Part shown: positions 7,228 to 59,371 of the stretch, in pieces
Numbering within the stretch: the first letter of the stretch is position 1
Layout of the letters: each line of letters starts with the position of its first letter
Origin: Nanobdellota archaeon
GTDB lineage: Archaea; Nanobdellota; Nanobdellia; Pacearchaeales; GW2011-AR1
Length of the DNA: 64,000 nucleotides
Assembly (NCBI GenBank): GCA_038046005.1
Contig: JBBSXB010000001.1
Location: 1 to 64,000, forward strand
Direction: 5' to 3'
The notes under the pieces: model-generated
The model's database searches: none
What the model was told of the DNA's origin: nothing
What the model saw: only the letters and a program-made list of their open reading frames with translations
Made by a program: the position numbers and the translations under genes

Positions 7228-7593
7228 ATGAAAACAAACACCCTGTATGAAGATTCTCAAATAAGAGTAACATATTTGCTTAGCCCCGAAACAGGAAAAG
7301 AAGAAGACATTATTAGTGCAGAAGATCATGAGTTGTGGGTTAAAGAAAGGCGTGGAGAGTGGAATAGGTATATGATTGGTAGAGGAATTTTAAAAGAGTT
7401 GGCGAGAACTTCGAGAGAGGACCGGGGGAGAAAATTAGAAACAATACATCCTGGAATAAGGATAGAATTAGAATTGCTTGGAACTGGGTTAAATATTGAT
7501 TCTCTTGGAGTTGCCATTAGTCAGGCTTATATTGAAGATGAAGAAAGATCTGAGGGGTCTAGGAGAACTGGAGCACCTTTCCAAAGCGATTGA
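7228..7593 (+). CDS. Orphan hypothetical protein
   Basis: 121-aa ORF with its own TATA-like element. Confidence 0.6.
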   Translation: MKTNTLYEDSQIRVTYLLSPETGKEEDIISAEDHELWVKERRGEWNRYMIGRGILKELARTSREDRGRKLETIHPGIRIELELLGTGLNIDSLGVAISQAYIEDEERSEGSRRTGAPFQSD

Positions 7594-7632
7594 TTAATAG
7601 TCGGAATCTTTATAAACCTACAAAACGCTCTT

Positions 7633-7685
7633 TTTTTGACTAAACAGTTTAAAACTGTTCTAACGCTGTAAAGCGATGTCAAAAA
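7633..7685 (+). promoter_or_regulatory. Candidate structured 5' leader (three-way junction) of the rps19e operon
   Basis: TTTTTGAC/GTCAAAAA encloses AACAGTT/AACTGTT and CGCT-GTAA-AGCG hairpins; TTTATAAA at 7609-7616. Confidence 0.5.
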
Positions 7686-7691
7686 CTGAAA

Positions 7692-8126
7692 ATGGAAAAA
7701 TTCAATCCGGTTTATGAAATGAATATTCAAGAATATAATATAAAATTAGCTGAAGCTTTGAAAAAGATTCAGGAATTTAAAGAACCGGAATGGGCTGCAT
7801 TTGTAAAATCTGGGCCTGGAAAGTCTAGACCAATCGAAGATCCTGATTTCTGGCACAAAAGGTCTGCCTCAATATTAAGACAAATTTACAGAAAGGGCAC
7901 TGTTGGTGTAAGCAGATTAAGAACAAGATATGGTAACAAAAAAATAAGAGGTTCAAAGCCAGAAGAGTTTAGAAAGTCTGGAGGAAAAATAATCCGAGTT
8001 ATATTACAACAGGCAGATAAAGCTGGGTTTACAGAAGTCATTAAACCAATTAAAGGAGCAAGAAGTGTCAGGCCTGGGAGAAAATTAACTGATAAAGGAA
8101 AGTCTTTCATGGAGAGTATAAAGTAA
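7692..8126 (+). CDS. rps19e: 30S ribosomal protein eS19
   Basis: PEWAAFVKSG, FWHKRSASILR, GKIIRVILQQ, GRKLT. Confidence 0.96.
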   Translation: MEKFNPVYEMNIQEYNIKLAEALKKIQEFKEPEWAAFVKSGPGKSRPIEDPDFWHKRSASILRQIYRKGTVGVSRLRTRYGNKKIRGSKPEEFRKSGGKIIRVILQQADKAGFTEVIKPIKGARSVRPGRKLTDKGKSFMESIK

Positions 8127-8127
8127 A

Positions 8128-8331
8128 ATGGGAATAAAAAATCCTGAAAAAAAAGCGAAGCTTGCGAAAGAGGGAAGGAGAACTAAGTGGGCTCCTGTTT
8201 GGGCTGTTTTGAAAAAATACGGAATGGGAAAAAGAATACACCCTTCCCAGATGACGCATGTAAAAAGATCATGGAGAAGAACAAAATTGCATATTAAACC
8301 AAGAAAACAGAGGAAGTCACACTTCGGATAA
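8128..8331 (+). CDS. rpl39e: 50S ribosomal protein eL39
   Basis: KLAK..APVW..KRSWRRTKL. Confidence 0.9.
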   Translation: MGIKNPEKKAKLAKEGRRTKWAPVWAVLKKYGMGKRIHPSQMTHVKRSWRRTKLHIKPRKQRKSHFG

Positions 8332-8337
8332 TTAAAA

Positions 8338-8670
8338 ATGGCAATAAGAAGATATGAATTTTATAAAGGAAAAGAGTCTAAAGAAAGACTAGATTCAAAT
8401 GACGTTCTAAAAGTAATCAGAAGTATTCCAGTAGAAGAATTAGAAACATATGGTTTTTCAGTAGAAGAACGAGGTGATAGTTTAAGATTAATTGGAAGGC
8501 ATACTCCGAGAGCGGGAGGTTTTAGCAGTTGTGTTATAGGAGGATTTTCAGATAACGAATTACGTATGTCTACAAATGAAGATTGTGTTACTGTCAGTAG
8601 GTATATCTCTAACTTATCCCAATTATTAAACCATAAAGGATTAAATACGAGCTTAATAGAGAGGATATAA
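8338..8670 (+). CDS. Orphan hypothetical protein inserted between rpl39e and rpl31e
   Basis: 110-aa ORF tightly packed between two r-protein genes. Confidence 0.65.
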   Translation: MAIRRYEFYKGKESKERLDSNDVLKVIRSIPVEELETYGFSVEERGDSLRLIGRHTPRAGGFSSCVIGGFSDNELRMSTNEDCVTVSRYISNLSQLLNHKGLNTSLIERI

Positions 8671-8672
8671 AC

Positions 8673-9245
8673 ATGGCAAAAAAAATAGAAACAACTGAAA
8701 AAATTGAAAGAGAATATATAATTCCGCTTAGAAAGGAAATAGACAAAGTTGCAATATACAGAAGGACAGAAAAGGCAATAAAAGCAATCAAAGAATTCGT
8801 CGTCAGACACATGAAAATAAGAGATAGAGATTTGAAAAAAGTGAAAATTGACAAATATCTGAATGAAGCAATGTGGACAAGAGGGATTAAAAATCCTGTT
8901 CATAAAATAAAAGTCAAAGTAATAAAAGAAGGGGAAATTGTCAGAGTTGAGGCTGTAGATTTGCCTAAAAACCTTAAATTCAAAAAATTAAGAGAAGAAA
9001 AGATTAAGAAAGGCGCTGAAGAAATTTCTAAAAAGAAAAAAGCTGAAAAGAAAGCCAGTGAAGAACCAGAAAAAAAGCCTGAAGAAAAACCTGAAGAGGA
9101 AAAGAAAGTTGAGGACGAGAAAAAGGCCTCTGTTGTAGAAGCTGGAAATGAAATGGAAAAAGCTGCCGCAAAACAAATGAAGCATCAAGTTGGCGGAAAG
9201 ACAAAAGAGCCAAAGCATGAGCACAGAATGAGTCTGCAGAAGTAA
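8673..9245 (+). CDS. rpl31e: 50S ribosomal protein eL31 with Lys/Glu-rich C-terminal extension
   Basis: EREYIIPLR, KAIKAIKEFVVRHMK, LNEAMWTRG. Confidence 0.95.
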   Translation: MAKKIETTEKIEREYIIPLRKEIDKVAIYRRTEKAIKAIKEFVVRHMKIRDRDLKKVKIDKYLNEAMWTRGIKNPVHKIKVKVIKEGEIVRVEAVDLPKNLKFKKLREEKIKKGAEEISKKKKAEKKASEEPEKKPEEKPEEEKKVEDEKKASVVEAGNEMEKAAAKQMKHQVGGKTKEPKHEHRMSLQK

Positions 9246-9276
9246 GGTTTATTAATTCTAAATTAATCCAATCTTC

Positions 9277-9678
9277 ATGAAAAAAGTCCTTTGTTTTGGG
9301 ACGTTTGATATCTTACATGAAGGTCATAAAAAGTTTTTAATAGATGCTAAAAAACAAGGAGATTTTCTTATTGCGAATGTTATCAGTGACAAAGCTGTTT
9401 TAGAAAATAAAAAAATAAAACCAATAAACAATCAAAGAAAAAGAGCATTAAATTTGAAAAAATTAAATATCGCAAACAAAATAATAGCAGTTTCAGATGA
9501 TAATACCAAAAATTTCCTATTAATAAAGAACATTAATTCAAAAGTAATCGCTATTGGTTATGATCAAAAATCAAATTTTATAGATGAGCTAAAGAATTTC
9601 TTAAAGAAAGAGGGGCTAAAACCAAGGTATTATGTCTCAAAGGAATTGGGGGGAATTCATTCCAGTCATCTAAGATGA
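9277..9678 (+). CDS. ribL: FAD synthase/cytidylyltransferase family protein
   Basis: GTFDILHEGH, GYDQ, IHSS. Confidence 0.75.
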   Translation: MKKVLCFGTFDILHEGHKKFLIDAKKQGDFLIANVISDKAVLENKKIKPINNQRKRALNLKKLNIANKIIAVSDDNTKNFLLIKNINSKVIAIGYDQKSNFIDELKNFLKKEGLKPRYYVSKELGGIHSSHLR

Positions 9679-9996
9679 TGGGTCTTTCTTAAATCTATTT
9701 GCGTCTCGGCCGTAATGTTTTTCTTGCATAACTTTGTCCTAAGCTTCTTGCAAATTAATTTTCTGGGAATTCGCCATGCAAACTACAGTAAACATAACAT
9801 CTATTAACTCGTCCTGTAATTCTTTTTTAGCCTCGCTGTCTTTCTTTTTCTTTGTACCAAAAAGATGATTAATTTCTCTAGCAACTTCACCAGTTTCTTC
9901 AGCTAATCTTGCAACAATTTCATGTGGCGGCCAATATTTAGGAGTAAATTGAGAAGCCCATTTGTCAACATCATCTTGAATATCTTTTAAGGACAT
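9670..9996 (-). pseudogene. MazG/YpjD-like nucleotide pyrophosphohydrolase with an in-frame TAG
   Basis: RLAEETGEVARE, ELIDV; reading frame continues QEA*DKVMQEKHYGRDANRF past the TAG at 9739-9741. Confidence 0.75.
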
Positions 9997-10033
9997 TTGT
10001 TTATACAGATATTAGGATATTAAAGTTTTTCGC

Positions 10034-10636
10034 TTATTTCAAAACCTTTCCGGTCTCGTTATACCACAAATACAAATCAAGTTCTCCAAGGGAAGTGTTT
10101 GTCTTTTTAGCTAACTCTTTAAGGACGTTTTCTGTTTCAATATATTTTTTGGCAGTCATTGTTTTAGGTTTTTCAATCAATCCATGATTTTCTAAAATGT
10201 CTAAAATATGAAAATCAATTATTGCATAATCCTTAAATCCAACATTTCTTAAAAAATGTGAAGCTTCTTTCATACCAATACCATTTATGTTTTCAACTAA
10301 CTGATTCCTAACATCTGGAGATTTTAAATTAATTTTCTTGAAATTTTCCCTGGCTGAAGAAAGATAGTTTGCCCTGACTGTGTGAAATCTGTAGATTTCT
10401 TTTAGTTTTTTTTGGATTTCTTCTTGACTGCCTTTGAATAAAATATCTCCGAGATGATTTATTGTTTTAATTCCAAGTTCTGCGCTAGTTCCTGCTGTAA
10501 GGATGCAGAAAGCCAATTCTCTAAATAAATCATTGAAGTTTCTAGGAATTTTTTCAAATTCATTCATTCTTTTGTCTATAACCTGGCTGACTTCTTGGCT
10601 TTTCAAATTTTCAACGAGGTTTATTAGAGTGTCCAT
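10034..10636 (-). CDS. ogg: 8-oxoguanine DNA glycosylase/lyase (OGG2)
   Basis: GIGMKEASHFLRNVG, AIIDFHI, LDLYLWY..GKVLK. Confidence 0.95.
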   Translation of the reverse strand: MDTLINLVENLKSQEVSQVIDKRMNEFEKIPRNFNDLFRELAFCILTAGTSAELGIKTINHLGDILFKGSQEEIQKKLKEIYRFHTVRANYLSSARENFKKINLKSPDVRNQLVENINGIGMKEASHFLRNVGFKDYAIIDFHILDILENHGLIEKPKTMTAKKYIETENVLKELAKKTNTSLGELDLYLWYNETGKVLK

Positions 10637-10686
10637 GTTTGTGTGAAAAAGATAAAGTATAAAAATATATTCCTATTTTTTATATA

Positions 10687-10896
10687 ATGGCATTAAACGA
10701 AAAATGTACCATGGACAACCCAGAAAAATTAAGATGGTATAATCTCACTATACCCTTACTTGGCCCAATTTTGTACATGGACAGAAATAGCCCCCCAAAC
10801 GATTTTAAGATTGTTAAAAGGGGTTTGACCTCTGTTATTACAAGTACAGGACTTTTTGGTTTAGTTAGTGCAGGAATTTATTACTGGAATAAATAA
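10687..10896 (+). CDS. Small orphan membrane protein
   Basis: 69 aa with two hydrophobic segments. Confidence 0.5.
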   Translation: MALNEKCTMDNPEKLRWYNLTIPLLGPILYMDRNSPPNDFKIVKRGLTSVITSTGLFGLVSAGIYYWNK

Positions 10897-10897
10897 T

Positions 10898-11509
10898 TCA
10901 TTTTACCTTCTTTATTCCATTTAATAATTTATCTTTCTGCTTTCTTGAAGTGTGAGTTTTTCCGAATCTAACTAAAGTTGCGTTAACTCGACTCCAATAT
11001 TTTTTTGGAAAGAGATTCTTTAAGTCTTCCTCAACTTTATGAGGACTTTTGTTTTTAGTCCAACCTAAATAATTTGAGATGTAATGAACGTGAGTGTCCA
11101 CGCCGAGCCCTGCTTCTCCATGTTCAACTATAAATACGTTTGCCGTTTTTCTTCCAACTCCCGGAAGAGTTATGAGTTCTTCAATTGTTTTAGGAACAAC
11201 TCCATTATATTTCTCTATCAGCATCTTCGCGCAATTTATTATGTTTCTTGATTTGTTTCTGTAGAAATTTACAGGCCTTATTATATTTTGGACAGATTTT
11301 ATATTTGCATTTGCGAGTTTTTTTGCTGTTGGAAATTTTTTAAACAAAATATGTGCAATTTTTATAGTAGTTTCATCCCTTGTTCTTGCCGAAAGAATTA
11401 TTGATATTAATGTTTCATAAGAATTTTTCCATTGTTCTGCTGCTAGCCTCATGTCTCTGCCTTTTTTTGCCAGGATTGTTAATTGTTTCAAGGCTGTTTT
11501 TTGTTCCAT
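10898..11509 (-). CDS. nth: Endonuclease III (lacks the Fe-S motif)
   Basis: ILSART.D, HhH LPGVGRKTANV, VDTHV; no C-terminal Cys cluster. Confidence 0.92.
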   Translation of the reverse strand: MEQKTALKQLTILAKKGRDMRLAAEQWKNSYETLISIILSARTRDETTIKIAHILFKKFPTAKKLANANIKSVQNIIRPVNFYRNKSRNIINCAKMLIEKYNGVVPKTIEELITLPGVGRKTANVFIVEHGEAGLGVDTHVHYISNYLGWTKNKSPHKVEEDLKNLFPKKYWSRVNATLVRFGKTHTSRKQKDKLLNGIKKVK

Positions 11510-11541
11510 GAATTTAAAAACTATACATAATTTTTATATTT

Positions 11542-12243
11542 ATGCTAGATGAATTACTGAAAGAAATAAATTCAAAAGCTGACAAAAAACGGGCGGAAAA
11601 TTTACAGAGATTTTTTAAAACTGGGCTGGGAGAATATGGAGAAGGAGATGTTTTTCTTGGAATTAAAGTTCCCTTACAAAGAGAGATAGCTAAAAAATAT
11701 ATTGGGTTGAGTTTAACAAAGATACAAGAACTTCTAAAAAGCAAGATTCATGAGCATAGATTAATTGCATTGTTGATTCTTGTTGAGAAATTCAAAAAAG
11801 GAAGCGAAACTGAAAAAGGAGACATTTTTAATTTATATTTGAAAAATACAAAATACATCAATAATTGGGATTTGGTTGATTTATCTTCTCATAAGATTGT
11901 TGGAGAGTTTTTGGTAGATAAGAAAAGAGATATTTTATACAAACTAGCTAGCTCAAATGATTTGTGGGAAAAAAGAATATCGATGATTTCAACTTTTGCC
12001 TATATAAAGAATGAAGATTTTAATGATGCATTAAGAATTTCTGAGATTTTATTAGAAGATAAGCGCGATTTGATAAATAAAGCGGTTGGTTGGGTGCTAA
12101 GAGAAATTGGTAAGAAAAACCAAAAAATCCTTGAGGATTTTTTAAAGAAACATTACAAAGATATTTCTCGAACAACTTTGAGATATGCTATTGAAAGATT
12201 CCCTGAAAAATTAAAGAAGAAATATTTTGGTGGAGAGATTTAA
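11542..12243 (+). CDS. DNA alkylation repair protein (AlkD-like)
   Basis: FFKTG..EGDVFLGI, INNWDLVD, KAVGWVLREIGK, RTTLRYAIE. Confidence 0.9.
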   Translation: MLDELLKEINSKADKKRAENLQRFFKTGLGEYGEGDVFLGIKVPLQREIAKKYIGLSLTKIQELLKSKIHEHRLIALLILVEKFKKGSETEKGDIFNLYLKNTKYINNWDLVDLSSHKIVGEFLVDKKRDILYKLASSNDLWEKRISMISTFAYIKNEDFNDALRISEILLEDKRDLINKAVGWVLREIGKKNQKILEDFLKKHYKDISRTTLRYAIERFPEKLKKKYFGGEI

Positions 12244-13112
12244 TGCAACGGCCTTTTCTTTAAGACCCCCCCATGGGCTGCTTTTATTCCATGCTCTATG
12301 ACTACTGCATTAGGATCAATTGCTATGATATTGTTTTTGACTTTTAAGGTTTCAAGCCTTGTTACAACTGTAAAAACTATGTCTTGGTTGCTGTCACCAT
12401 TATACCCTCTTTTACCTTGATAAATTGTCACACCTTTCCCAAGATCTTTAACAAGAGCTTTTCTGATTTCTTCGCTTTTCTCAGAGATGATTGTTATTCC
12501 GATGTATTCCTCGATTCCCTGTATGAAAAAATCAACCGTTTTGTAGGCAACTAAATATGTCAAAAGGGAATAAAGCGCTTTCTCTATGCCTAAAGAAATA
12601 GCGGCAAAAGAAAATATTATGACATTGATTATGAATATTATTTCTCCGACAGTTAAGTTTATTTTTTTACTTAAATAAACAGACAAAACCTCTGTTCCGT
12701 CAAGAACACTTCCGCCCCTTACAGACAGTCCAACACCTGCACCAAGCAAAAAACCGCCGAATACTGCAACAAGAATTTTATCTGAAGTAATGACTGGATA
12801 GTTCACGAAGACCAGACAAAGAGAAAGTCCCATAATAGCAACAAATGTTTTTATCGCAAAGTTTTTGCTAATTTGTTTAATTGCTAAATAGATAAAAGGA
12901 AGATTAAAAAGAAATATTAGAATGGAGACTGAAATAGGAGTTAAAAAAGAAACAAGAAGGGAAACTCCTGTGATTCCCCCATCAATGAACCCATTTGGAA
13001 TAAGAAATCCCTTTAATCCAAATCCTGCAGCCGCAATTCCAAGAATAATCAAGAAATATTCCTTGATTGTGTTGAACACCCATCTAAAAACACCTACTTT
13101 TCTAAAATCCAT
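12240..13112 (-). CDS. YitT-family membrane protein
   Basis: DGGITGVS, GGSVLDGTE, GVT..IDPNA. Confidence 0.9.
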   Translation of the reverse strand: MDFRKVGVFRWVFNTIKEYFLIILGIAAAGFGLKGFLIPNGFIDGGITGVSLLVSFLTPISVSILIFLFNLPFIYLAIKQISKNFAIKTFVAIMGLSLCLVFVNYPVITSDKILVAVFGGFLLGAGVGLSVRGGSVLDGTEVLSVYLSKKINLTVGEIIFIINVIIFSFAAISLGIEKALYSLLTYLVAYKTVDFFIQGIEEYIGITIISEKSEEIRKALVKDLGKGVTIYQGKRGYNGDSNQDIVFTVVTRLETLKVKNNIIAIDPNAVVIEHGIKAAHGGVLKKRPLH

Positions 13113-13155
13113 GTATTATAACAAGATTTATAATTTTTAAATTTTGTTTATTAAT

Positions 13156-14040: not shown

Positions 14041-14274
14041 AGTGTTAGTTTCTTCTGAATACCTGGAGGAATTGAGTCTTAGTGCAACGATGTCGAAGGC
14101 AAAAATTCAAAGTCTGCTAGAGTAAATTAAAGTTAGTAAAATTAGGGGCTGGTTCGATAGTATATTTGGGGTTTTAGATATCAACGAGAATTTTTTGCTT
14201 CTTTTTTTCCTAAAAAAAGAAAATGGGGGAGTTCTATCACAAACATTTTTATATCTTAAATTTGTTAATTGTTT

Positions 14275-14497: not shown

Positions 14498-14527
14498 ATT
14501 ATTTAATACTCCTCTTTCTTAGTAAAA

Positions 14528-15806: not shown

Positions 15807-15838
15807 TTTTTATAGATTAGCAAATTAAATATATTAAA

Positions 15839-18156: not shown

Positions 18157-18158
18157 AA

Positions 18159-21198: not shown

Positions 21199-21248
21199 TT
21201 TAATTAAGGTTAGATAAAGTATAAAAATATATCTTTGTTCTATAACTC

Positions 21249-47501: not shown

Positions 47502-47547
47502 TTTTATTATTAGATATAAATCAAAAATTGCTTTTTAAAGGTTCTGT

Positions 47548-47901
47548 TTAGGAAGAAGTTAAGACTTCTAATTTTGATAAAACGAAATTGACTAGCTCTT
47601 TAGGAACAACTTCACACTCTTCCGTTTCAGAGAGAACTTTGGCTAAATTTCCAAACTCGGCTCCAGTAGCGATTAAAATGAAAGGATTATGAGTATCCAC
47701 ATCATTGGAAAATTTTTCTAAGTCTCTATTTGGAACTCTAACATAATCTCCGTCACGAGGGCAACTGACTAACCCATACATTTCCAAATTTGTAGTTAAA
47801 ACAATAGCGTGTTGCTTTATGTTAGGATTAGCCGTATCGAATCTAGCATATGCTAATTTTATACTTTCTATAGCGTTTGGTAATTGACTTGTATTTGCCA
47901 T
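47548..47901 (-). CDS. Orphan hypothetical protein downstream of tRNA-Pro
   Basis: ATG at 47901; the longer ORF-track start lies inside the tRNA. Confidence 0.6.
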   Translation of the reverse strand: MANTSQLPNAIESIKLAYARFDTANPNIKQHAIVLTTNLEMYGLVSCPRDGDYVRVPNRDLEKFSNDVDTHNPFILIATGAEFGNLAKVLSETEECEVVPKELVNFVLSKLEVLTSS

Positions 47902-47960
47902 AAAAAGAAAACTATTTATTGAGTTTTTAAAAGTTGTGGATTTTGGAATTTCTTTAATAA

Positions 47961-48098: not shown

Positions 48099-48866
48099 TT
48101 ATTTTTTCTTCACTGCTTTCTTCTCATCTTTTGCCGGTGCTTTTGCAGGAGCTTTAGCGTCTGCCTTCGCTGGTGTTGCAGCCGTTGCAGCCGCAGGAGT
48201 TGCGCCAGCAGCTGGAGTTGCTCCAGGAGCCGCAGGAGTTGCAGCAGCTTTTTCAGCTTCGGCAGCTTGTTTAGCAGCTTCTTCCTTCTTTATTGCTTCT
48301 TCTTGCTTAGATTTTATTTCAGCGAATTCTTTGTCCAGCTTGGATTTCTTTTCAGGAGAAAGATGTGTTTTTTCTTCTTTTATTTCTTTATCATATTTTC
48401 CTTGAGATATTTCCTGAGAAACTTCTGCAGGAGATTTACATTCAACCAAAACTCCAAGACTGACACAAGTTCCAACAACTGATTTTACGGCTGCCTTTAG
48501 GTCTCTTGAAAGCATGTTTGGCATTTTTGTTTTTGCAACAGAAATTACCTGTTCTATAGAAATGTTTCCAGCATATAATTTTTTTTGAGTTCCTGATCCT
48601 TTTTCTATCTTTATTTCTCTTTTGATAAGTTCAGAAACTGGAGGAGAAAAAACTTTGACTGTAAATTCTTTTGTAGAAGAATTGACATCTATTTCTATTG
48701 GAACTTTAAGTCCTTCAAAGTTTTTTGTCGCGTCGTTCACTCTTTGAATAACCTGGCCAATATTAATTCCTGCAGGCCCAAGCTTCTGGCTCAAAGCAGG
48801 ATTTGGCTTCATTGCCCCGCCTTCTGTTAATATTTTAACTTGCATCTTCCTCGTCTCTTCTGACAA
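48099..48866 (-). CDS. rpl11: 50S ribosomal protein uL11 with Ala/Pro/Lys-rich extension
   Basis: P.PALSQKLGPAG, SPPVSEL, VGTCVSLG. Confidence 0.95.
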   Translation of the reverse strand: MSEETRKMQVKILTEGGAMKPNPALSQKLGPAGINIGQVIQRVNDATKNFEGLKVPIEIDVNSSTKEFTVKVFSPPVSELIKREIKIEKGSGTQKKLYAGNISIEQVISVAKTKMPNMLSRDLKAAVKSVVGTCVSLGVLVECKSPAEVSQEISQGKYDKEIKEEKTHLSPEKKSKLDKEFAEIKSKQEEAIKKEEAAKQAAEAEKAAATPAAPGATPAAGATPAAATAATPAKADAKAPAKAPAKDEKKAVKKK

Positions 48867-49287
48867 CTTTCAAGTTGTCCAATTTAATTGTAACTGGCAA
48901 TGGAACAACAGCTCCAAGCAAGCTTACTACTGCTTCTTCTTTCTGTTTGTCTATTCTTATAACTTTCGCTTTTTCTTTTTTGAATGGCTCAGATATAATT
49001 TCTACAATGTCTCCTTCCTTGATTAAGATGTCAACAATGCTCGGCTCTATCATATTTTTTATTTCTTCGTAGCCTATTGTTTTACCAATGATTCCCTTGA
49101 CATAAGGCAGATTGAAAACTGCTTCTTCTGCTGATTCCCTGTCTTCAGCTTCGAGCAAAACATAGCCCCTAAGTCCATGAGGCCTTAAAACAGAATATAC
49201 ATTAAGGGATTTTTTTTCTGACCTTTCAGCTATCATTTCGACTGCCCGGTCTTCTTTGTTTGTCGTGACTTTTATAATAAATAACAT
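48835..49287 (-). CDS. spt5: Transcription elongation factor Spt5 (NusG)
   Basis: NGN domain (GYVLLE) and KOW (GDIVEIISEPF). Confidence 0.95.
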   Translation of the reverse strand: MLFIIKVTTNKEDRAVEMIAERSEKKSLNVYSVLRPHGLRGYVLLEAEDRESAEEAVFNLPYVKGIIGKTIGYEEIKNMIEPSIVDILIKEGDIVEIISEPFKKEKAKVIRIDKQKEEAVVSLLGAVVPLPVTIKLDNLKVVRRDEEDAS

Positions 49288-51267: not shown

Positions 51268-51292
51268 TGTTAGAATTCATAGTTTTTATTTA

Positions 51293-51481
51293 TTATTGTG
51301 CAAAAAAGAGTCGCATAATTAAAGATATAATAAACCCTAGAATGCCCAAGATGATAATTCCTATCGCTGAAATTTTTGCAGTCATCTGAAATTCTTTTTT
51401 TGTAGGTTTTCTGAGGGCATGCCATACTCTTTTGCATTTTATACTAAAAGACTTTGTTTTCTCCCACAATTGTGCCATCAT
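51293..51481 (-). CDS. secE: Protein translocase SecE (Sec61 gamma)
   Basis: RVW..LRKPT..EF..IG..ILG.LGFII. Confidence 0.93.
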   Translation of the reverse strand: MMAQLWEKTKSFSIKCKRVWHALRKPTKKEFQMTAKISAIGIIILGILGFIISLIMRLFFAQ

Positions 51482-51520
51482 AAAATAAGATGGAAAGGGT
51501 TTTTAAGTGTTATTGATAAA

Positions 51521-51913
51521 TTAAGATTTTATCTGCTTTGGAAAATTTGACAATATTTCTTCTATAGAATTTTTTATTCTAGAATCCTCAAAGTCTTTGT
51601 GAATTGTTACTCTAAGCCAATTTATTTGTGCTTTATTTAGATTAGGATAACTAGCACCATGAGAAAATCTATTAAAATTATCATAAGCTTCTAAAATTAC
51701 TTCATAATATTTTGACCTATAAAATTCCCAATAATAAGCACTATTTTTTTCTCCATACACCTGTTCCACAGAAATTAAATTTTTTGGAGAAATTTGTACA
51801 GGATCTTGAAGAAACACTTTATTTTTGAAAAGTAAATAGATATTTTTTAAAGCATCAGGGGGTCTATCATACCACAGAACATCATTCAAAGTAATCACAA
51901 TCGGTTTTTCCAT
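51521..51913 (-). CDS. Orphan hypothetical protein between ftsZ and secE
   Basis: 130-aa ORF with its own TATA-like element. Confidence 0.6.
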   Translation of the reverse strand: MEKPIVITLNDVLWYDRPPDALKNIYLLFKNKVFLQDPVQISPKNLISVEQVYGEKNSAYYWEFYRSKYYEVILEAYDNFNRFSHGASYPNLNKAQINWLRVTIHKDFEDSRIKNSIEEILSNFPKQIKS

Positions 51914-51956
51914 AATGCTAAATAATTATAACATTTAAAAGAATTATTGTGGTCGA

Positions 51957-53063
51957 CTATTCTTCTTCGCCTTCAAAGAATTCTATTCCCAATTCTTCCT
52001 CAATTTCTTTGTGCTTTCTTTTTTCAAGGCTGTCTGTTGTTCCGAAAATCTGAGAACTTTTAACTCCTGTGACAATCAACAAAACTCTTATTGATTTTTC
52101 CATATCTGGAGAAATTTGAGCACCCCATATTAATTTTGCATCTGGGCTCAACTTTTCACCTATCCCGCCAATTATCGTTTTGCATTCTTCAAGACTCATG
52201 TCCGGACCGCCTATAACATTAACCAAAGCGCCAGTTGCATTAGAGATGTCAACATCTAGCAAAGGGTTTTGAATCGCTTTTTCAACAGCTTCAATAGCCC
52301 TGTTCTGGCCATCTGATTCTCCCATGCCTATAAGTGAAACCCCCCCATCAACCATTACAGCTTTTATGTCTGCAAAATCTAAGTTAACTAATCCAGTTGT
52401 TGTGACTAATTCAGTAACTCCCTTAACAGCATTGGTCAAGATTTCATCAGCGATTTTGAAAGCAGTGTGTAATGGAAGTTCTGGTGCCAATTCAAGAAGC
52501 TTGTCGTTTGGAATGACTATCAAAGTATCAACAACACCTTCAAGTCTTTCCAGTCCGTTCATTGCATTTTCTATTCTTTTCTTTCCCTCTATTGTAAAAG
52601 GAATTGTCACAACTGCTATTGTTAAAGCGCCTTGTTTTTTTGCGATACTTGCTATAAATGGAGCTGCTCCTGTTCCTGTTCCTCCGCCAAGACCGCATGT
52701 TATGAAAATCATATCTGCTCCTGCAAGTTTTTTCTTGATTTCCGATTCTGATTCTTTTGCAGCTTCTTCTCCAATTTTTGGATTACTGCCCGCCCCAAGT
52801 CCTTGCGTTAACTCCCGGCCAATTAATATTTTTTGATCAGCGCTGGCATAAAGCAAATCTTGAGCATCTGTATTAATAGCTATTAATTCTCCTCCCTTAA
52901 TTCCAATTTCTTTCATTCTGCTTAGAGAATTATTTCCTCCACCTCCAACTCCCACAATTTTTGTTCTTGCTGTTTGCTTTTTTATAAGCTCTGCTAACTC
53001 TTTATCAATTTCCCTAAGTTCTGGAGAAAGATCCGAATCATCTCCTTTAACCATATAACCCAT
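51957..53063 (-). CDS. ftsZ: Cell division protein FtsZ
   Basis: GVGGGG, NTDAQ, GGGTGTG, NLDFAD. Confidence 0.98.
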   Translation of the reverse strand: MGYMVKGDDSDLSPELREIDKELAELIKKQTARTKIVGVGGGGNNSLSRMKEIGIKGGELIAINTDAQDLLYASADQKILIGRELTQGLGAGSNPKIGEEAAKESESEIKKKLAGADMIFITCGLGGGTGTGAAPFIASIAKKQGALTIAVVTIPFTIEGKKRIENAMNGLERLEGVVDTLIVIPNDKLLELAPELPLHTAFKIADEILTNAVKGVTELVTTTGLVNLDFADIKAVMVDGGVSLIGMGESDGQNRAIEAVEKAIQNPLLDVDISNATGALVNVIGGPDMSLEECKTIIGGIGEKLSPDAKLIWGAQISPDMEKSIRVLLIVTGVKSSQIFGTTDSLEKRKHKEIEEELGIEFFEGEEE

Positions 53064-53094
53064 TCACACAAAAAGAAATCTCAATTTATAAGTA

Positions 53095-53775: not shown

Positions 53776-53825
53776 GAAAATACCTGATTAAAAATCTTTA
53801 TAAATGTATTTTTTTTAGGTAGATT

Positions 53826-54212
53826 ATGACTTTAAGAATAATCAATGCAATAGATGCCAAGACTGGAACTAATATCATCATAGAAGGGATGGCCTATACC
53901 GTGAGAAAAATTGACATAAGCAAGACGGGAAAGCACGGAAGCTCCAAGTGCAGAATAGAAGCTGTCAGCATGATTAATGATCAAAAAAAAATAATTGCTG
54001 TTCCCGGGCATGAAAGATTTGATGTGCCGATGGTCAATAAAAACAAAGCACAAGTTCTTTCAATCGGAGACAAAGTAAGTGTCATGGATTTGGAAAATTT
54101 CGAGACTATAGAATTAGAGTGCCCTGAAGAATTAAGATCACAGATTGCAGAAAATGACAATGTTGAATATTGGGATATAAATGGGGAAAGAATAATAAAG
54201 AGGAAATTTTAA
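53826..54212 (+). CDS. eif5a: Translation factor aIF5A
   Basis: SKTGKHGSSK hypusine motif. Confidence 0.96.
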   Translation: MTLRIINAIDAKTGTNIIIEGMAYTVRKIDISKTGKHGSSKCRIEAVSMINDQKKIIAVPGHERFDVPMVNKNKAQVLSIGDKVSVMDLENFETIELECPEELRSQIAENDNVEYWDINGERIIKRKF

Positions 54213-54213
54213 A

Positions 54214-54501
54214 ATGATAAATCTATTAGACTTATTGAGCAGAAGAGAGGGTGATGAAAGACGAATAGAAAGAGCTAAAAGTGAAGATGGAAGCTATAAT
54301 ATTGTTGAGAATTATTTGCAAGAGGGAAGGTTACTAGGAATTATTCCAGTAGTTGTTGAAATTGAAAGAACATATTTTCCAGCAGGAAGAGTTTTTGCAG
54401 CAATAAATCTTGGACATAAAGAAAAAGTTAAAATTAAAACTAATTTTTCAAAAGAGTATAGGAAACAATTAAATAAACTAAAAAGTGTAACTAATTATTA
54501 A
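54214..54501 (+). CDS. Orphan hypothetical protein between aIF5A and rpl40e
   Basis: 95-aa ORF, tightly packed. Confidence 0.6.
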   Translation: MINLLDLLSRREGDERRIERAKSEDGSYNIVENYLQEGRLLGIIPVVVEIERTYFPAGRVFAAINLGHKEKVKIKTNFSKEYRKQLNKLKSVTNY

Positions 54502-54504
54502 AAC

Positions 54505-54666
54505 ATGGCAAAAATACCTGAAGCTCAGAATAGAATGTTTAAGAATGTGTTTGTATGCAAAAGCTGCCATACAAAAATTAGAGCGAACCCTCAAAAAATA
54601 CTGAAAGGCAAAGTTAAATGCAGAAAATGTAAGAAGAGAGCATTTAGGCCTTTGAAAAGAAAGTAG
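54505..54666 (+). CDS. rpl40e: 50S ribosomal protein eL40; not in the ORF track
   Basis: MAKIPEAQNR..VCKSC..KCRKC..FRP, 53 aa. Confidence 0.9.
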   Translation: MAKIPEAQNRMFKNVFVCKSCHTKIRANPQKILKGKVKCRKCKKRAFRPLKRK

Positions 54667-54727
54667 CTAGATTAATAAACTTTCAATATTTGTTTTTATA
54701 AATTAGTTAAATAAAAAGAGGATAAAA

Positions 54728-56140
54728 ATGAGCTATATGATTTATGATCTTATTTTGTTGGGAATATTCATAATTGCAGTTGGAAGTTTTTTATACAGAA
54801 AAAGAGAAAATTTGAAGAAGGAAGGTTTGCTTTTTCTTTACAGAGCAGAGTGGGGAATAAAATTAATAAACAGCGTAGGGAACAAGTATAAAAAAACATT
54901 AAAATTTTTGAGTTACATTTCAGTGATATTAGGGTATCTGCTCACTGTAGGAATTCTTTATCTTACTTACTCTATTGTTAAAATTTATATATTGCATCCT
55001 GAAGTTGTTAGTGCTATAAAAGTCCCGCCGATAACACCATTGATTCCCTACATTGACAAGGTTGTTCCTTTCTTGCCTCCTTTTTATTTCACATACTGGA
55101 TAGTAATTTTAGCGATTGTCGCAATAAGCCACGAATTCGCACATGGAATTTTTGCAGTTTATAACAAAGTGAAGATAAAAAAAACAGGATTTGGATTTTT
55201 CCCATTTTTCTTGCCAGTATTTTTAGCCGCTTTTGTTGAGCTTGACGAAAAAGTTATGGTAAAAAAATCAAATTTTGCGCAAAGAGCGATTCTTGCTGCA
55301 GGAACATTCGCTAATGTAGTTACTGCAGTTATATTCTTTATAGTTTTAGGATTATTTTTCATGGCAGCTTTTCAGCCAGCAGGAATTACTTTTGATGATT
55401 ATTCTTATTCTGCTTTAAGTGTTTCATCAATACACTCAATTAATGGCGTCATAGTAGTCAACACTTCTGAAGAAGGTCTTCAAAAATTAATAAAAAATGC
55501 TTCTTTCAATGAGATTGAGGCAGGAGGGAAAAATTATGCCGGTATTAAAGGATTTTCAAGTGATGGGAAAACTATAGCTCTTTATGATGATTCTCCTGCA
55601 ATAAAAGCAGGATTAAATGGTGCCATAACTGAAATTAACGGACAAAAGATAATGAGTGTAGATGCTTTGTCTCAGGAATTATCCAAACATAATCCAGGAG
55701 AAAGTGTAATCATAAAAACAGAGACAAGCAATGGAACCAAGAATTATAATATTACTTTGGGACGAAATCCTGCTAATTCTGGGAAAGTTTGGTTGGGAGT
55801 TGGTTTTTTGACACAAGAAACGAAGGGATTTTTCAATAAGGTTTTTGCATCAATTTCTTCCTTTAAAAAACCTAATATATACTACAAGTCAGTAATCGGA
55901 GAATTTGGATGGTTCATATACCACTTGCTTTGGTGGCTCATACTAATAAGTTTCAGCGTCGCATTGGTTAACATGCTGCCAATAGGAATTTTCGATGGAG
56001 GAAGATTCTTTTATCTAACAATTTTAGCAGTTACTGGAAAAGAAGTTTGGGCCCGAAAAATCTTTAAGTGGGTAACTTGGCTTTTCATACTTCTGTTGAT
56101 AGTTTTAATGGTTTTTTGGGCCTTTGCAGTTATATTCTAG
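54728..56140 (+). CDS. Site-2 protease (M50) with PDZ domain
   Basis: HEFAH, AAG, PDZ-like segment, NMLPIGIFDGG. Confidence 0.93.
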   Translation: MSYMIYDLILLGIFIIAVGSFLYRKRENLKKEGLLFLYRAEWGIKLINSVGNKYKKTLKFLSYISVILGYLLTVGILYLTYSIVKIYILHPEVVSAIKVPPITPLIPYIDKVVPFLPPFYFTYWIVILAIVAISHEFAHGIFAVYNKVKIKKTGFGFFPFFLPVFLAAFVELDEKVMVKKSNFAQRAILAAGTFANVVTAVIFFIVLGLFFMAAFQPAGITFDDYSYSALSVSSIHSINGVIVVNTSEEGLQKLIKNASFNEIEAGGKNYAGIKGFSSDGKTIALYDDSPAIKAGLNGAITEINGQKIMSVDALSQELSKHNPGESVIIKTETSNGTKNYNITLGRNPANSGKVWLGVGFLTQETKGFFNKVFASISSFKKPNIYYKSVIGEFGWFIYHLLWWLILISFSVALVNMLPIGIFDGGRFFYLTILAVTGKEVWARKIFKWVTWLFILLLIVLMVFWAFAVIF

Positions 56141-56193
56141 AAGGTTTTTTAAACTGCAAAGAATTGTTACAACGATATAAAAAAGTGGTGAAA

Positions 56194-56505
56194 ATGGGAA
56201 AAATTTCAGAAAAACAATATACTTTTATGGTTGCAATTGTTGGGATTTTGATAGTTTTATCATTATTCTTAATCTTAAGTGACTTTATTGAATTTAGAAC
56301 AGGAAACGTTGCAAAAGACGTTCAAGGAAAAAGGGAATGTTTTGTTGGGACCTGTAATACTTATTACAGATGCGGCGAAGCCGGAAGTTTACAAAAGAAC
56401 ACATGCACAGTAAATAAAGAAAGCGGGACTTGTGATCCCATAGAACCACCAAACACATGCCAATTTGTTGAAGAAGTTTGTAACACGAAGAAAGTTATTT
56501 GTTGA
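56194..56505 (+). CDS. Small membrane-anchored Cys-rich protein
   Basis: N-terminal TM, RTGNV, eight Cys. Confidence 0.55.
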   Translation: MGKISEKQYTFMVAIVGILIVLSLFLILSDFIEFRTGNVAKDVQGKRECFVGTCNTYYRCGEAGSLQKNTCTVNKESGTCDPIEPPNTCQFVEEVCNTKKVIC

Positions 56506-56805
56506 TTATCTAGAAGGAACATATTCTGCTTCCCAAAAAGAACCTTTACAGCCTTTCAAAGATAATAATTTTAAGGCATTCATTAATTCAATTTGTTTTG
56601 TATTACCAAAAGTTAATTTTTCTAAACCTCTTTCTATATCTTTTATCCTGATAATTTTTCCAGAGTGAGTTTCGACATGAGGATCACGATTACTGTCTGG
56701 ACCTAATGGAAAAACAGCAAAATACCCCTTTATTTCCAAGCCTATTATCAAACTTTCTCTTTCAGAATCACTTAAATTTTGGTAAGTATCCCAATCAATT
56801 TTCAT
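56506..56805 (-). CDS. Orphan hypothetical protein
   Basis: ATG at 56805, immediately after the duplicated gene tail. Confidence 0.55.
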   Translation of the reverse strand: MKIDWDTYQNLSDSERESLIIGLEIKGYFAVFPLGPDSNRDPHVETHSGKIIRIKDIERGLEKLTFGNTKQIELMNALKLLSLKGCKGSFWEAEYVPSR

Positions 56806-56825
56806 TTCACAAATCAATAACTCCT

Positions 56826-56862
56826 TCTTCCGAAGTGTTTCACGGAGTAAACCTTCGCAGAA
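56826..56862. repeat. GC-rich palindromic hairpin (REP-like)
   Basis: CGAAG-T-GTTT-CACGGAGT-AAAC-CTTCG. Confidence 0.5.
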
Positions 56863-56863
56863 A

Positions 56864-57214
56864 TTATAAGTCTATGACACCCTCTTTTGTCAATGCAGCA
56901 AATCTAATTCCAACTGGAAAATTTATCAGCGCAGAAATCAAAGCCATGTGCTCTTTTCCTTCTCCAGAAGCTAAACTCAAAGCTACTTCCATGCCGCTAA
57001 TTTTTCCCTTGAGTTTTTCTGAAAATTCATCTCTAAGCTCTTTTATTTTTTTGCTAAAATCTACCTTAATAAATTCAAATGGTTTTTCATGCTTGAATTC
57101 TTTTGCAAAGTCATCTCCAAAAATAATTATCTTATCCCATTCTCCATACTTCATTAAACCAGAAACCTGCGCCCAGGTTCCCTTCCCAGTTGATAATAAA
57201 GCTACGAGTTCCAT
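56864..57214 (-). CDS. Hypothetical Rossmann-like (CARF-like) protein
   Basis: LVALLSTGKG..DKIII..VALSLASGEGKEH. Confidence 0.7.
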   Translation of the reverse strand: MELVALLSTGKGTWAQVSGLMKYGEWDKIIIFGDDFAKEFKHEKPFEFIKVDFSKKIKELRDEFSEKLKGKISGMEVALSLASGEGKEHMALISALINFPVGIRFAALTKEGVIDL

Positions 57215-57215
57215 T

Positions 57216-57413
57216 TTAGTCTATTTTGGCTGTTTCTGTAATAAGTTTAATTAATCTAGACTGATCTGCTTCAACTTCACCTACTGTTTTTCCATCAGCT
57301 ATTCTTTTTTGAGTTAGATGCGGTCTTGGATGGCCGTAATCTGGGTCGTTGCAGTATGCACAATTTGTTGGACAGGGAGTCCACTCTTGAGGATTATATT
57401 TTTGATTGTTCAT
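57216..57413 (-). CDS. Small Cys/His-containing orphan
   Basis: CPTNCAYC..HPRPH. Confidence 0.5.
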   Translation of the reverse strand: MNNQKYNPQEWTPCPTNCAYCNDPDYGHPRPHLTQKRIADGKTVGEVEADQSRLIKLITETAKID

Positions 57414-57565
57414 TTTAAAAAGACAATAGTAGGATTTTTAAGCATTATTGTGATTTTTAAATTAGTAATCTTTATAAACCGATTTTATCTCAAGATTTAG
57501 TCGTTTGAACCATATCGTCATGGGATATATTCTATGTTCATGGCGCATAATCTGGGAGACATACA

Positions 57566-58195
57566 ATGGAACTTGAAGAAGAACTAAAGAAAGCTCTGAT
57601 AGAGCTAAGGAAAGGAAAAGAAAGAAAGTTTGATCAAACAGTTGACTTAATTGTAAATTTGCAAAAATTCAACATAAAAAAAGATTCTGTAAATATTTTT
57701 GTTAACCTCCCCCACAAGATAAAAAATAAAAGAATAGCTGCTTTTTTAGAATCAAAGAATTCTGCCATAGACACAATAACACAAGATGAGTTCAAAGGTT
57801 ATAGTGATAAAAAATCTTTAAAAAAACTTGTGAAAAGATTTGATTTCTTTATTTCCCAAGCCAGTTTAATGCCAAAAGTAGCCACTGTTTTTGGAAAAGT
57901 TTTGGGACCTGCTGGAAAAATGCCTTCCCCCCAACTTGGAATAATTATGAATGTTGATCAAAAAGCCCTAGAGGAATTAAAGGAAAAAATAAACAAAAGC
58001 GTAAGAATAAAGACAAAAGAAGCAAGTATAAAAATTTCAATAGGAAAACAAAGCATGGAAGATGAAAAGATAATTGATAATATAGTTACAATTTATAATT
58101 CTCTGATAAAAGCTCTTCCTAAACAAAAAGAAAACATAAAAAATGTAGAAGTTAAATTCACGATGACTAAACCCCAGAAAATAAGAATAAAATGA
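57566..58195 (+). CDS. rpl1: 50S ribosomal protein uL1
   Basis: RKFDQTVDL, LGPAGKMP, VKFTM. Confidence 0.96.
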   Translation: MELEEELKKALIELRKGKERKFDQTVDLIVNLQKFNIKKDSVNIFVNLPHKIKNKRIAAFLESKNSAIDTITQDEFKGYSDKKSLKKLVKRFDFFISQASLMPKVATVFGKVLGPAGKMPSPQLGIIMNVDQKALEELKEKINKSVRIKTKEASIKISIGKQSMEDEKIIDNIVTIYNSLIKALPKQKENIKNVEVKFTMTKPQKIRIK

Positions 58196-59019
58196 AATCT
58201 AAAGAAACAAAAAGAAAAATTCCAAAGAAAAAAATTGCTGAAGTTGAAAGTTTGAAAAACCTTATAAAAAGCAAGAAAACAATATTGATTGCATCTATAA
58301 AAAATATTCCCGCCTCGCAATTTCAAGAGATATCCAAAAGCCTGAGAGGAAAAGCTGTGGTTAAAGTCCCAAAAAAAAATCTAATAATAAGAGCCATAGA
58401 TTCCTCTGACAAAAAAGAATTAGAAGAATTAAAAGAAAGCATAAAAGAAAATACTACAATACTATTTTCGGATCTTGATGCATTCGATCTCGCTGCTGAG
58501 CTGATAAAAAATAAGAGTTATGCTAAGGCTAAAGCCGGCCAAGAAGCGCCTGAAGACATAGAAGTCCAGGAAGGGCCGACAGAATTAATTCCCGGACCAG
58601 CTATAAGTGAACTTGGAGCTCTGGGAATACAAATCCAAATTGAAAAAGGAAAAATCCACATTAAACAATCAAAAATTATTGCAAAAAAGGGCGAGAAGAT
58701 TTCACAGCCAGCCGCTGAAGTAATGGCGAAGCTTGACATCAAACCATTTGTCATATCCTTAATCCCACTAGCTGCTTTTGATAATACCGAAAACAAAGTT
58801 TACAAAGAGATAAATATTGACCCAGAAGGAACTTTGAATGGATTGAGAAACGCTTTCACAAGATCTTTGGCATTTGCAGTAAGTATTGCATACACTTGCC
58901 AGGGCACAATAAAATTACTTATAGCAAAAGCAGGGAGAAATGAAAAGGCTATTGAAAATTTGATGGTAAAAACTGATGTTCCGCAAGTAAATTCCGAGGA
59001 GGAAATTAAAAATGAGTAA
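58192..59019 (+). CDS. rpl10: 50S ribosomal protein uL10 (P0)
   Basis: AKAGQEAPEDI, PGPAISELGALGI, KLDIKP. Confidence 0.95.
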   Translation: MKSKETKRKIPKKKIAEVESLKNLIKSKKTILIASIKNIPASQFQEISKSLRGKAVVKVPKKNLIIRAIDSSDKKELEELKESIKENTTILFSDLDAFDLAAELIKNKSYAKAKAGQEAPEDIEVQEGPTELIPGPAISELGALGIQIQIEKGKIHIKQSKIIAKKGEKISQPAAEVMAKLDIKPFVISLIPLAAFDNTENKVYKEINIDPEGTLNGLRNAFTRSLAFAVSIAYTCQGTIKLLIAKAGRNEKAIENLMVKTDVPQVNSEEEIKNE

Positions 59020-59363
59020 ACAAGCGCTAGGAACATTTCCAGGATTTGATGAAGAGTTAGAAAGACTTAGAACCTTAGGACACGAAGCAATAATCTTGGG
59101 AAACAGAGAAGAAGTTCGTAGGATACTTAACGAAGATGTATATAATTTTTTATTCCAACAAGATCAATATCAAAGACAGCTTTATAGAACATTTAAAAAC
59201 TTTGCCGAAGAGAATCCTGAACTAAAACCAATTGTAGGGGAATATTTATCAAAATTAGAACAAAGCATCAGAAATAGGGCAGAAGCATTAAATTCTTGGA
59301 GTAATGATGTTAGGGGAAATCTAAAACTCTTTGAAGATTCAATAAAAGTAAATTCCGAGGAGG
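58985..59363 (+). repeat. Exact 18-bp direct repeat AAGTAAATTCCGAGGAGG flanking an orphan ORF
   Basis: Copies at 58985-59002 and 59346-59363. Confidence 0.9.
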
Positions 59364-59371
59364 GAAAATAA
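59012..59371 (+). CDS. Orphan helical protein inserted between rpl10 and rpl12
   Basis: 119-aa ORF ending in the same VNSEE as uL10. Confidence 0.7.
   Translation: MSKQALGTFPGFDEELERLRTLGHEAIILGNREEVRRILNEDVYNFLFQQDQYQRQLYRTFKNFAEENPELKPIVGEYLSKLEQSIRNRAEALNSWSNDVRGNLKLFEDSIKVNSEEGK

Follow-up and report, generated by a model that had tools for sequence, protein, structure and literature searches.

Single genes that stand between otherwise conserved neighbours are known from several settings. Phage morons are single extra genes lying between conserved phage genes, typically with a promoter and a terminator of their own. Integrons depend on the IntI integrase and an attI site, and hold their cassettes in a tandem array, with an attC hairpin at the end of each cassette. 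Bacterial transfer hotspots between core genes that are free of mobile-element genes are small in number and consist of islands of several genes. Short bacterial ORFans rich in AT have been attributed to phage. A comparison of a SAR11 genome pair reports "gene indels in core regions", 62 in number and divided 44:18 between the two genomes, and interprets them as a passing stock of inserted genes that deletion thins out, some of them perhaps kept as polymorphisms (PMC2217521). Here we analyse the first 64 kb of contig C1 (JBBSXB010000001.1, positions 1 to 64,000; the window) of a groundwater Nanobdellota archaeon (GCA_038046005.1), in which five small open reading frames (ORFs), o7228, o8338, o51521, o54214 and o59012, separate pairs of housekeeping genes. 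A preliminary description of the window had proposed for them, and for a sixth ORF, a candidate dispersed, cassette-like system that captures genes with no integrase.

We favour, with moderate confidence, the account in which the five small ORFs are recent lineage-specific accessory genes (ORFans) that arrived in a genome-wide flux of single-gene insertions, with no site-specific capture system behind them. A dedicated capture system of the cassette kind is not supported, failing every defining test that was run. The genome (G000; 874,611 bp, 33% GC, 98% complete) was compared with that of a congener, G001 (11 contigs, 705,108 b, 88% complete), which is collinear with window positions 1-59,629 at 80-88% DNA identity. 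The whole-genome alignment covers 553,980 bases at 81.6% identity and holds 104 clean G000-specific segments (154-1663 bp, median 438, 58 kb in total) and 25 clean G001-specific segments (20 kb in total). A further 130 segments are replaced, with protein-level similarity kept in 91 of them and none in 39.

With 104 and 25 clean indels in 554 kb of alignment, this pair resembles the SAR11 pair as portrayed in that report: gene order is conserved, dozens of sites differ by the presence or absence of a single gene, and the split is asymmetric (44:18 there, 104:25 here). Unlike the SAR11 indels described there, the inserts belong to a DPANN-type archaeon, lie in ribosomal-protein operons 1-8 nt from their neighbours and are mostly strict ORFans (PMC2217521). 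Judged by this analogy, the G000 inserts are the same kind of thing as the core-region gene indels of SAR11.

The resemblance to other systems is partial. Like phage morons, the ORFs are found in one genome, G000, and are absent from its close relative G001, lie between conserved co-oriented genes, have functions unrelated to those of their neighbours and are accompanied by no recombinase; unlike morons, they belong to a cellular genome, and three of them (<=8 nt on each side) leave no room for a promoter or terminator. Variable cargo and promoterless single ORFs read from an upstream promoter, here by prediction, recall integron cassettes, from which the inserts differ in being dispersed singly, outside any array, with no integrase in the window and no attI site or attC-like hairpin seen. 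Integrase-free recurrence at core junctions is shared with the bacterial hotspots, and the ORFs match the short bacterial ORFans in being short (median 119 aa) and AT-richer than the genome (30.6% vs 33.4% GC). Unlike the bacterial hotspots, these are single-gene inserts at 91 of 577 junctions (~16%, about one in six) and not a few multi-gene islands. A full-text literature search, at the level of its listings, returned no description of ORFan insertions in DPANN ribosomal operons.

If the favoured account holds, newly gained genes are accommodated even in archaeal operons of the highest conservation (L10-L12, L39e-L31e, aIF5A-L40e), and the accessory genome of an episymbiont-type lineage is spread as single genes over about a sixth of its junctions and is not collected in islands. 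Some 100 very young, datable ORFans, with an empty-site sister genome in the same sequencing run, would provide material on the origin and loss rate of new genes. No new recombination machine is revealed.

Empty alleles, filled alleles and an insertion scar

All five small ORFs are missing from G001 as clean gene-sized gaps. The segment with o7228 (7178-7608) is matched there by 13 bp, that with o8338 (8332-8666) by 0 bp, L39e and L31e being 6 nt apart, that with o51521 (51520-51957) by 1 bp, that with o54214 (54213-54501) by a 20-nt spacer, and that with o59012 (59006-59345) by 0 bp. o54214 is also absent from L148, a metagenome locus of a third lineage, 86% identical. The empty and filled alleles anticipated by the preliminary description are thus present, and vertical conservation of the ORFs with no empty allele, the observation named as speaking against it, is not what is found, G001 being empty at all five sites.

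A survey of the same junctions across other genera, with 18-29 genomes per junction (18-26 for the six filled junctions), extends this pattern. The other genomes are empty at yhbY>S19e in 19 of 26 cases, at L39e>L31e in 18 of 26, at aIF5A>L40e in 19 of 21, at L10>L12 in 18 of 21, at FtsZ>SecE in 11 of 21 and at SecE>Spt5 in 11 of 18, and the junctions L1>L10 and L40e>M50 are filled in 0 of 21 each. Different cargo at one site, likewise predicted, was observed: in all-against-all phmmer comparisons the fillers of a given junction are mutually unrelated, same-genus pairs excepted. Half of the 30 fillers tested from other genera have a Pfam family (15 with, 15 without), and the families include a nucleotidyltransferase, a lysine-aminomutase-type radical SAM protein, an amidohydrolase, a CYTH protein, a CHASE2-cyclase and a DsbD/redoxin trio. 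At the yhbY/S19e junction of one relative, which is the o7228 site (G007, L008:2167-3089), a nucleotidyltransferase and a 133-aa partner lie on the opposite strand and look like a toxin-antitoxin-type pair.

Polarity was assessed against two outgroup genomes, G003 and G024. G000-specific sites with both flanks syntenic in the outgroup are empty in 28 of 43 cases in G003 and in 19 of 23 in G024. At 5 of 94 sites an inserted ORF has a homologue anywhere in G003; among small genes that G000 has in common with G001, 140 of 256 have one. Since most outgroup genera are empty at the junctions, the five small ORFs are probably gains on the G000 branch, and this is how we think they are best read, with FtsZ>SecE remaining ambiguous.

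The L10>L12 junction carries, by its alignment to G001, a real insertion scar with a target duplication of at least 18 bp. An exact repeat surrounds o59012, with a score reached by 0.2% of 927 null gene pairs; the 18 bp, which comprise the last bases of L10 and the GAGGAGG preceding L12, are present in two copies around o59012 and in one copy in G001. o59012 enters the right copy in the old L10 frame, and its last ~8 codons and stop are the duplicated old end of L10. L10 now stops inside the insert, and L12 keeps its ribosome-binding site.

The opposite polarity, in which the ORFs are ancestral fast-evolving genes deleted precisely from G001 and most genera by genome streamlining, is in our view unlikely. 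The usual view of compact genomes assumes a deletion bias, as quoted in the SAR11 report (PMC2217521), and such an account would accommodate the 15 of 43 informative G003 sites that are not empty, as well as the junctions filled in many relatives (FtsZ>SecE in 10 of 21; yhbY>S19e, S19e>L39e and L39e>L31e in 7-9 of 26-29). PDCD5-like dsDNA_bind genes adjoin S19e in three order-level relatives, which shows that real ancestral genes have been lost here, and small fast-evolving proteins could escape phmmer at such divergence. The emptiness of aIF5A>L40e and L10>L12 in nearly all relatives would, however, require many parallel exact deletions. Deletion from an ancestral set also agrees poorly with the scarcity of outgroup homologues relative to shared small genes, with the unrelatedness of the fillers at one junction, several of which belong to different known families, and with the intact 18-bp duplication around o59012, a mark of insertion. 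A 43-bp stretch between two repeats in L148 was considered as a remnant of o54214, to whose 3' end it aligns at 27 of 37 positions (score 14); the resemblance is not significant (shuffle p 0.17) and the candidate was rejected.

Indels across the genome and the search for a mechanism

The five ORFs are a small part of a wider pattern. Exactly one ORF is found in 72 of the 104 G000-specific segments, and the sites are dispersed over all contigs, with no array. The window alone has 17 such indel segments, and its segments also flank tRNA-Phe on both sides and adjoin tRNA-Pro. A restriction of insertion to housekeeping operons was rejected, the same indels occurring genome-wide, beside tRNAs and between non-housekeeping genes. 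In orientation the inserts do not depart from the rest of the genome (38 of 49 vs 556 of 703), and some inserts lie between divergent genes.

The junction sequence shared among inserts that the preliminary description had proposed to look for was not recovered, whether as a common end motif, as a hairpin or as a terminal repeat. Scores of direct repeats at insert ends across the genome are not above those of 625 null conserved gene pairs (Mann-Whitney p 0.16, 0.52), and in the window o59012 is the one indel of 17 whose repeat exceeds the null of 927 gene pairs. The similarity between the start region of the insert and that of the downstream gene is not significantly raised (63 pairs vs 430 controls, p 0.06), and duplication of start regions was rejected as a general rule on this result. 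In a comparison of 72 single-ORF inserts with 350 core genes, no 6-mer enrichment at insert ends survives correction, the positional information at the ends is the same, and no attC-like hairpin is found at the 3' ends, the downstream flanks of inserts being less structured (-3.3 vs -4.3 kcal/mol).

The content of the segments is equally varied. A blastn search of 22 window segments against the genome found no repeat family among them save a 21-nt motif. This AT-rich motif occurs twice in the genome as exact copies, at window positions 10650-10670 and 21212-21232; each copy lies in a G000-specific intergenic stretch ~15-20 nt upstream of an ATG, and may be a strong promoter element. No real paralogs of the window's inserted ORFs were found by phmmer, and 102 of 121 inserted ORFs are without a paralog genome-wide. 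A two-gene module (~190 aa and ~160 aa) occurs at least four times in G000 (C2:15801-16906, C7:61522-62527, C8:63965-65033 and C8:142789-143825), one copy within a G000-specific segment, and may be a mobile or toxin-antitoxin-like pair.

As the preliminary description had stated, no integrase or transposase lies nearby: no such family, Phage_integrase included, is matched among the 98 window ORFs. TnpB-type sequences have no match in the genome. Two tyrosine recombinases are present outside the window, on contigs C4 and C11, as is a reverse transcriptase at two loci, of which the copy at the start of C9 is broken. In the other locus (C4:41866-48143) the reverse transcriptase adjoins a pair of paralogous proteins whose C-termini are variable and rich in Gly, and 2 kb away there is a tyrosine recombinase; by its motif this locus looks like a diversity-generating retroelement with variable target proteins. 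Neither the reverse transcriptases nor the tyrosine recombinases have a tblastn match in G001 (88% complete).

Transposons, insertion sequences and miniature inverted-repeat elements are not indicated, as no multi-copy element was found among the window segments and target duplications are not of fixed length, the few repeats measuring 17, 18 and 27 bp. No nuclease domain of a homing endonuclease (LAGLIDADG, GIY-YIG, HNH or others) was found in the five ORFs with Pfam, PHROG or NCBIfam, nor did a fold search with o51521 return a nuclease above background. Co-conversion is not apparent either: insert flanks show no excess divergence from G001 relative to control junctions (83-86% vs 82% identity), and no imported homology arms are therefore visible. 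Taken together, the absence of a shared end motif, of a hairpin and of a nearby recombinase, the unrelated and mostly single-copy cargo and the genome-wide spread of the indels leave the dispersed cassette mechanism unsupported.

In the favoured account, the inserted DNA would most likely come from the mobile or viral gene pool or from the pan-genome of the species, and would enter by non-site-specific recombination, illegitimate or guided by short homology. In so compact a genome the survivors would be those insertions that fall into the few intergenic bases and spare the stop and start signals of the neighbours. Survival of only the fitting insertions would make the inserts look as if they had been dropped precisely at stop/RBS/start junctions (RBS, ribosome-binding site). 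The tightly packed ORFs o8338, o54214 and o59012 are predicted to be read from the operon transcript. o59012 illustrates one concrete route, its insertion having duplicated a target of at least 18 bp, consisting of the 3' end of L10 and the ribosome-binding site of L12.

Repeat-flanked inserts and the remaining alternatives

Several observations weigh against this account. A minority of inserts carry long repeats that cover the downstream ribosome-binding site or start. Besides o59012, these are a 190-bp insert in G000 (C7:25762-25951), flanked by a 27-bp repeat comprising the ribosome-binding site, the ATG and 4 codons, and an insert of 60 bp in L148, on either side of which 17 bp of the L40e start are repeated. 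The C7 insert gives rise to a membrane mini-ORF of 63 aa whose first residues are those of the next gene. Repeat scores of at least 12 are seen in 7.7% of inserts and in 3.0% of the null. Inserts are also somewhat commoner between conserved genes (48 of 246 junctions vs 43 of 331, p 0.038); in the window, 6 of 14 housekeeping junctions have a G000-specific insert against 8 of 53 others (one-sided Fisher p 0.033, with a post hoc classification), and insert-flanking genes are 83.9% identical to G001, against 82.3% (p 2e-4). This excess could reflect an insertion preference. Clean indels are easier to call between conserved flanks, and the excess there is for that reason not relied on. The asymmetry of 104 to 25 between the two genomes is not accounted for, and the search for donors found 0 relatives in IMG/VR for the four ORFans queried, so that horizontal origin is only a deduction here. 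The same IMG/VR result gave no sign of a viral origin, and PHROGs gave only two matches (E 1.2e-3).

An alternative, which sharpens the idea of the preliminary description, is a dedicated, integrase-independent process that would join incoming DNA at the ribosome-binding site or start of a gene, or immediately behind it, and duplicate that site, the cargo being expressed at once from the operon. Small circles might use short homology for a Campbell-type integration, or a staggered break or template switch might be at work. Such a process would agree with the empty and filled alleles and the different cargo at the same junctions, with the three cases in which a repeat of 17-27 bp lies over the downstream Shine-Dalgarno sequence or start, and with the presence in G000, and not in G001, of a reverse transcriptase of the diversity-generating type and two tyrosine recombinases, which fits the direction of the 104-to-25 split. 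We nevertheless consider it improbable. Nearly all window indels lack a repeat above null, repeats and start similarity are not significant genome-wide, and no motif or hairpin is common to the inserts, whose orientation is that of the background and whose positions extend to tRNAs and divergent genes. The reverse transcriptase locus itself, which by its motif resembles diversity-generating retroelements, has no connection with the junctions.

A narrower form of this idea is similarly doubtful. A subset of the inserts might stem from a process in which foreign or new DNA is added while the ribosome-binding site of the downstream gene, together with its start or first codons, is duplicated, so that the incoming sequence is translated at once from a highly expressed operon. 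The three repeat-flanked cases would then be fresh footprints and the repeat-less inserts decayed ones, and the process may be more active in G000, which has the reverse transcriptase and recombinases that its sister lacks. If true, start-duplicating insertion would give DPANN archaea an inherent means of producing new genes.

Hotspot transfer, with the conserved flanking genes serving as homology arms that move existing inserts between related genomes, likewise has a low probability in our estimate. It would account for integrase-free accessory genes between core genes and for the reuse of the same junctions across genera, and it agrees with the somewhat higher frequency of inserts between conserved genes and with the co-occurrence of the G000 species and G001 in one run (X5). 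The flanks of inserts are not more diverged than controls, which argues against it, with the reservation that a near-identical conspecific donor would leave no trace; the first origin of an insert is left unexplained by the model.

The inserted ORFs, their neighbours and other features

An artefact (chance ORFs, misassembly or chimeric contigs) is hardly credible: o8338, o54214 and o59012 have no homologues, the five ORFs no Pfam, PHROG or NCBIfam family, and the greedy ORF caller picked antisense shadows elsewhere, but contigs from two studies agree, a single ORF spans the whole of each insert at a genomic GC content of 33%, where stop codons are frequent, structure models are confident, and o51521 has full-length homologues.

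The public reads were examined as Logan contigs in the 8 runs that carry the stretch, none of which is recorded as RNA. In runs of two studies, the contigs that span o51521 and o59012 show 0 differences, and the insert structure is therefore not an accident of assembly. One run, X5, holds both G000 and a G001-type organism, at depths of ~19 and ~15. Joints that skip o51521, o54214, o59012 and 47544-47958 occur in that run at a depth of ~15, with the spacer letters of G001 and many substitutions. They were considered as empty alleles of the G000 strain and rejected, since the G001 spacer letters assign them to the sister species.

Among 5.8 billion protein clusters, o8338, o54214 and o59012 each match only themselves, in a search limited by its word index, and o7228 is matched in 1 of 41 genomes, its own. 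o59012 has a single weak NCBIfam match (E 8e-4, 19 bits vs a cut-off of 90). The ESM models of o8338 and o59012 have predicted local distance difference test (pLDDT) scores of 0.74 and 0.71, and a search of the ESM Atlas with these two gave low-score leads only. o51521 differs in having 21 full-length homologues, at 25-36% identity. Its homologues occur in 4 of 401 genomes of the phylum, G000 included, and in 0 of 27 further genomes of the family to which G000 belongs; in the three matching genomes besides G000 the neighbourhoods differ, RtcB being one example of a neighbour. The patchy distribution and varied contexts give o51521 the pattern of a horizontally moving accessory gene. The AlphaFold2 (AF2) model predicts an alpha/beta protein (pLDDT 84), for which the fold search found no clear match (best Foldseek E 0.023; best VIA Z 6.4, within background). 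The profile of the o51521 family has no match among the FtsZ>SecE fillers of 21 relatives.

The coordinates and housekeeping neighbours of the five small ORFs, as given in the preliminary description, were verified (Table 1). A sixth orphan listed there, the 609-aa ORF between SecE and Spt5, did not stand: its Palm_thioest/PGAP1-like matches make it an alpha/beta-hydrolase, and a diverged orthologue of 749 aa is found in the same place in G001. The N-terminus of this protein is hydrophobic and contains Cys. Tight packing, also emphasized in that description, holds for o8338, o54214 and o59012, within 1-8 nt of both neighbours, and does not extend to o7228 and o51521 (39-98 nt); o7228 has 52 nt of its own upstream sequence and 98 nt downstream. 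L39e and L40e found no match in single-sequence searches and were confirmed only by profiles of orthologues against solved ribosome chains. An overlapping ORF at 51270-51437 was rejected as SecE in favour of 51293-51481, which has the PF00584 match.

Table 1. Inserted ORFs, neighbouring genes and related features of the window
Feature	Position	Strand	Remarks
GNAT acetyltransferase	3808..4263	+	G000-specific; between CysRS and RuBisCO; same indel type outside housekeeping operons
yhbY/CRM-domain gene	6930..7175	+	PF01985, E 9.2e-8; left flank of the first junction
o7228	7228..7593	+	121-aa ORFan; no family; G000-specific segment ~7178-7608
Ribosomal protein S19e	7692..8126	+	PF01090, E 4.5e-35
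Ribosomal protein L39e	8128..8331	+	Profile of 24 orthologues vs solved archaeal L39e, E 1.3e-4
o8338	8338..8670	+	110-aa ORFan; 6 and 2 nt from neighbours; no family
Ribosomal protein L31e	8673..9245	+	Long Lys/Glu-rich tail; PF01198 on residues 10-84 of 190
Cytidylyltransferase-like gene	9246..9684	+	G000-specific; after L31e
Indel segment with ORF ~47548-47958	47544..47958	-	G000-specific; between L37ae and tRNA-Pro
Spt5 (NGN)	48835..49287	-	PF03439, E 4e-15
Alpha/beta-hydrolase, 609 aa	49438..51267	-	Palm_thioest, PGAP1 and DUF676 matches
SecE	51293..51481	-	PF00584, E 2.7e-6
o51521	51521..51913	-	130 aa; sparse uncharacterised family; 43 and 39 nt from neighbours; no Pfam/PHROG/NCBIfam
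FtsZ	51957..53063	-	PF00091 and PF12327
aIF5A	53826..54212	+	PF21485; 94% identical in G001
o54214	54214..54501	+	95-aa ORFan; 1 and 3 nt from neighbours; no family
Ribosomal protein L40e (zinc ribbon)	54505..54666	+	Profile of 22 orthologues vs solved archaeal L40e, E 1.5e-4
Ribosomal protein L10 (P0)	58192..59019	+	PF00466 and PF17777; last codons and stop inside inserted DNA, by alignment to G001
18-bp direct repeat, left copy	58985..59002	+	L10 3' end plus Shine-Dalgarno-like GAGGAGG
o59012	59012..59371	+	119-aa ORFan; 8-nt overlap with L10, 1-nt overlap with L12
18-bp direct repeat, right copy	59346..59363	+	Ahead of L12
Ribosomal protein L12 (P1)	59371..59661	+	PF00428

The window encodes a form III-type RuBisCO, ribosomal proteins of the eukaryote/archaeon type and many unannotatable ORFs. 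No Pfam family is matched by 51 of its 98 greedily called ORFs of at least 45 aa, and with about half of the ORFs in this condition orphan status as such is common here. The large-subunit gene of RuBisCO lies at 4265-5665 and is followed by two adjoining S-adenosylmethionine-decarboxylase-like genes at 5649-6484. Between 29120 and 39606 there is a series of large ORFs (277-890 aa), nearly all without a Pfam family, in which ~81% DNA identity is kept in G001. Two ribosomal proteins, L31e (190 aa) and L11 (255 aa, 48099-48866), have long low-complexity C-terminal extensions, rich in Lys and Glu in the former and in Ala, Pro and Lys in the latter; every relative examined has an L31e ORF of comparable length (174-246 aa).

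The greedy ORF caller took a 182-aa ORF at 56706-57254 (+) that is probably the antisense shadow of a 116-aa ORF at 56864-57214 (-). The family of the 116-aa ORF occupies the same position in most of 21 relatives, and a second, paralogous copy lies beside a prefoldin gene in many. Towards the end of the window, a 99-nt tRNA at 62667-62765 (-) is recognized by Rfam and not by ARAGORN, and possibly contains an intron; it adjoins a segment (62225-62662) that is replaced in G001. A pyrimidine-nucleoside-phosphorylase-like gene at 63240-63992 is truncated by the window end.

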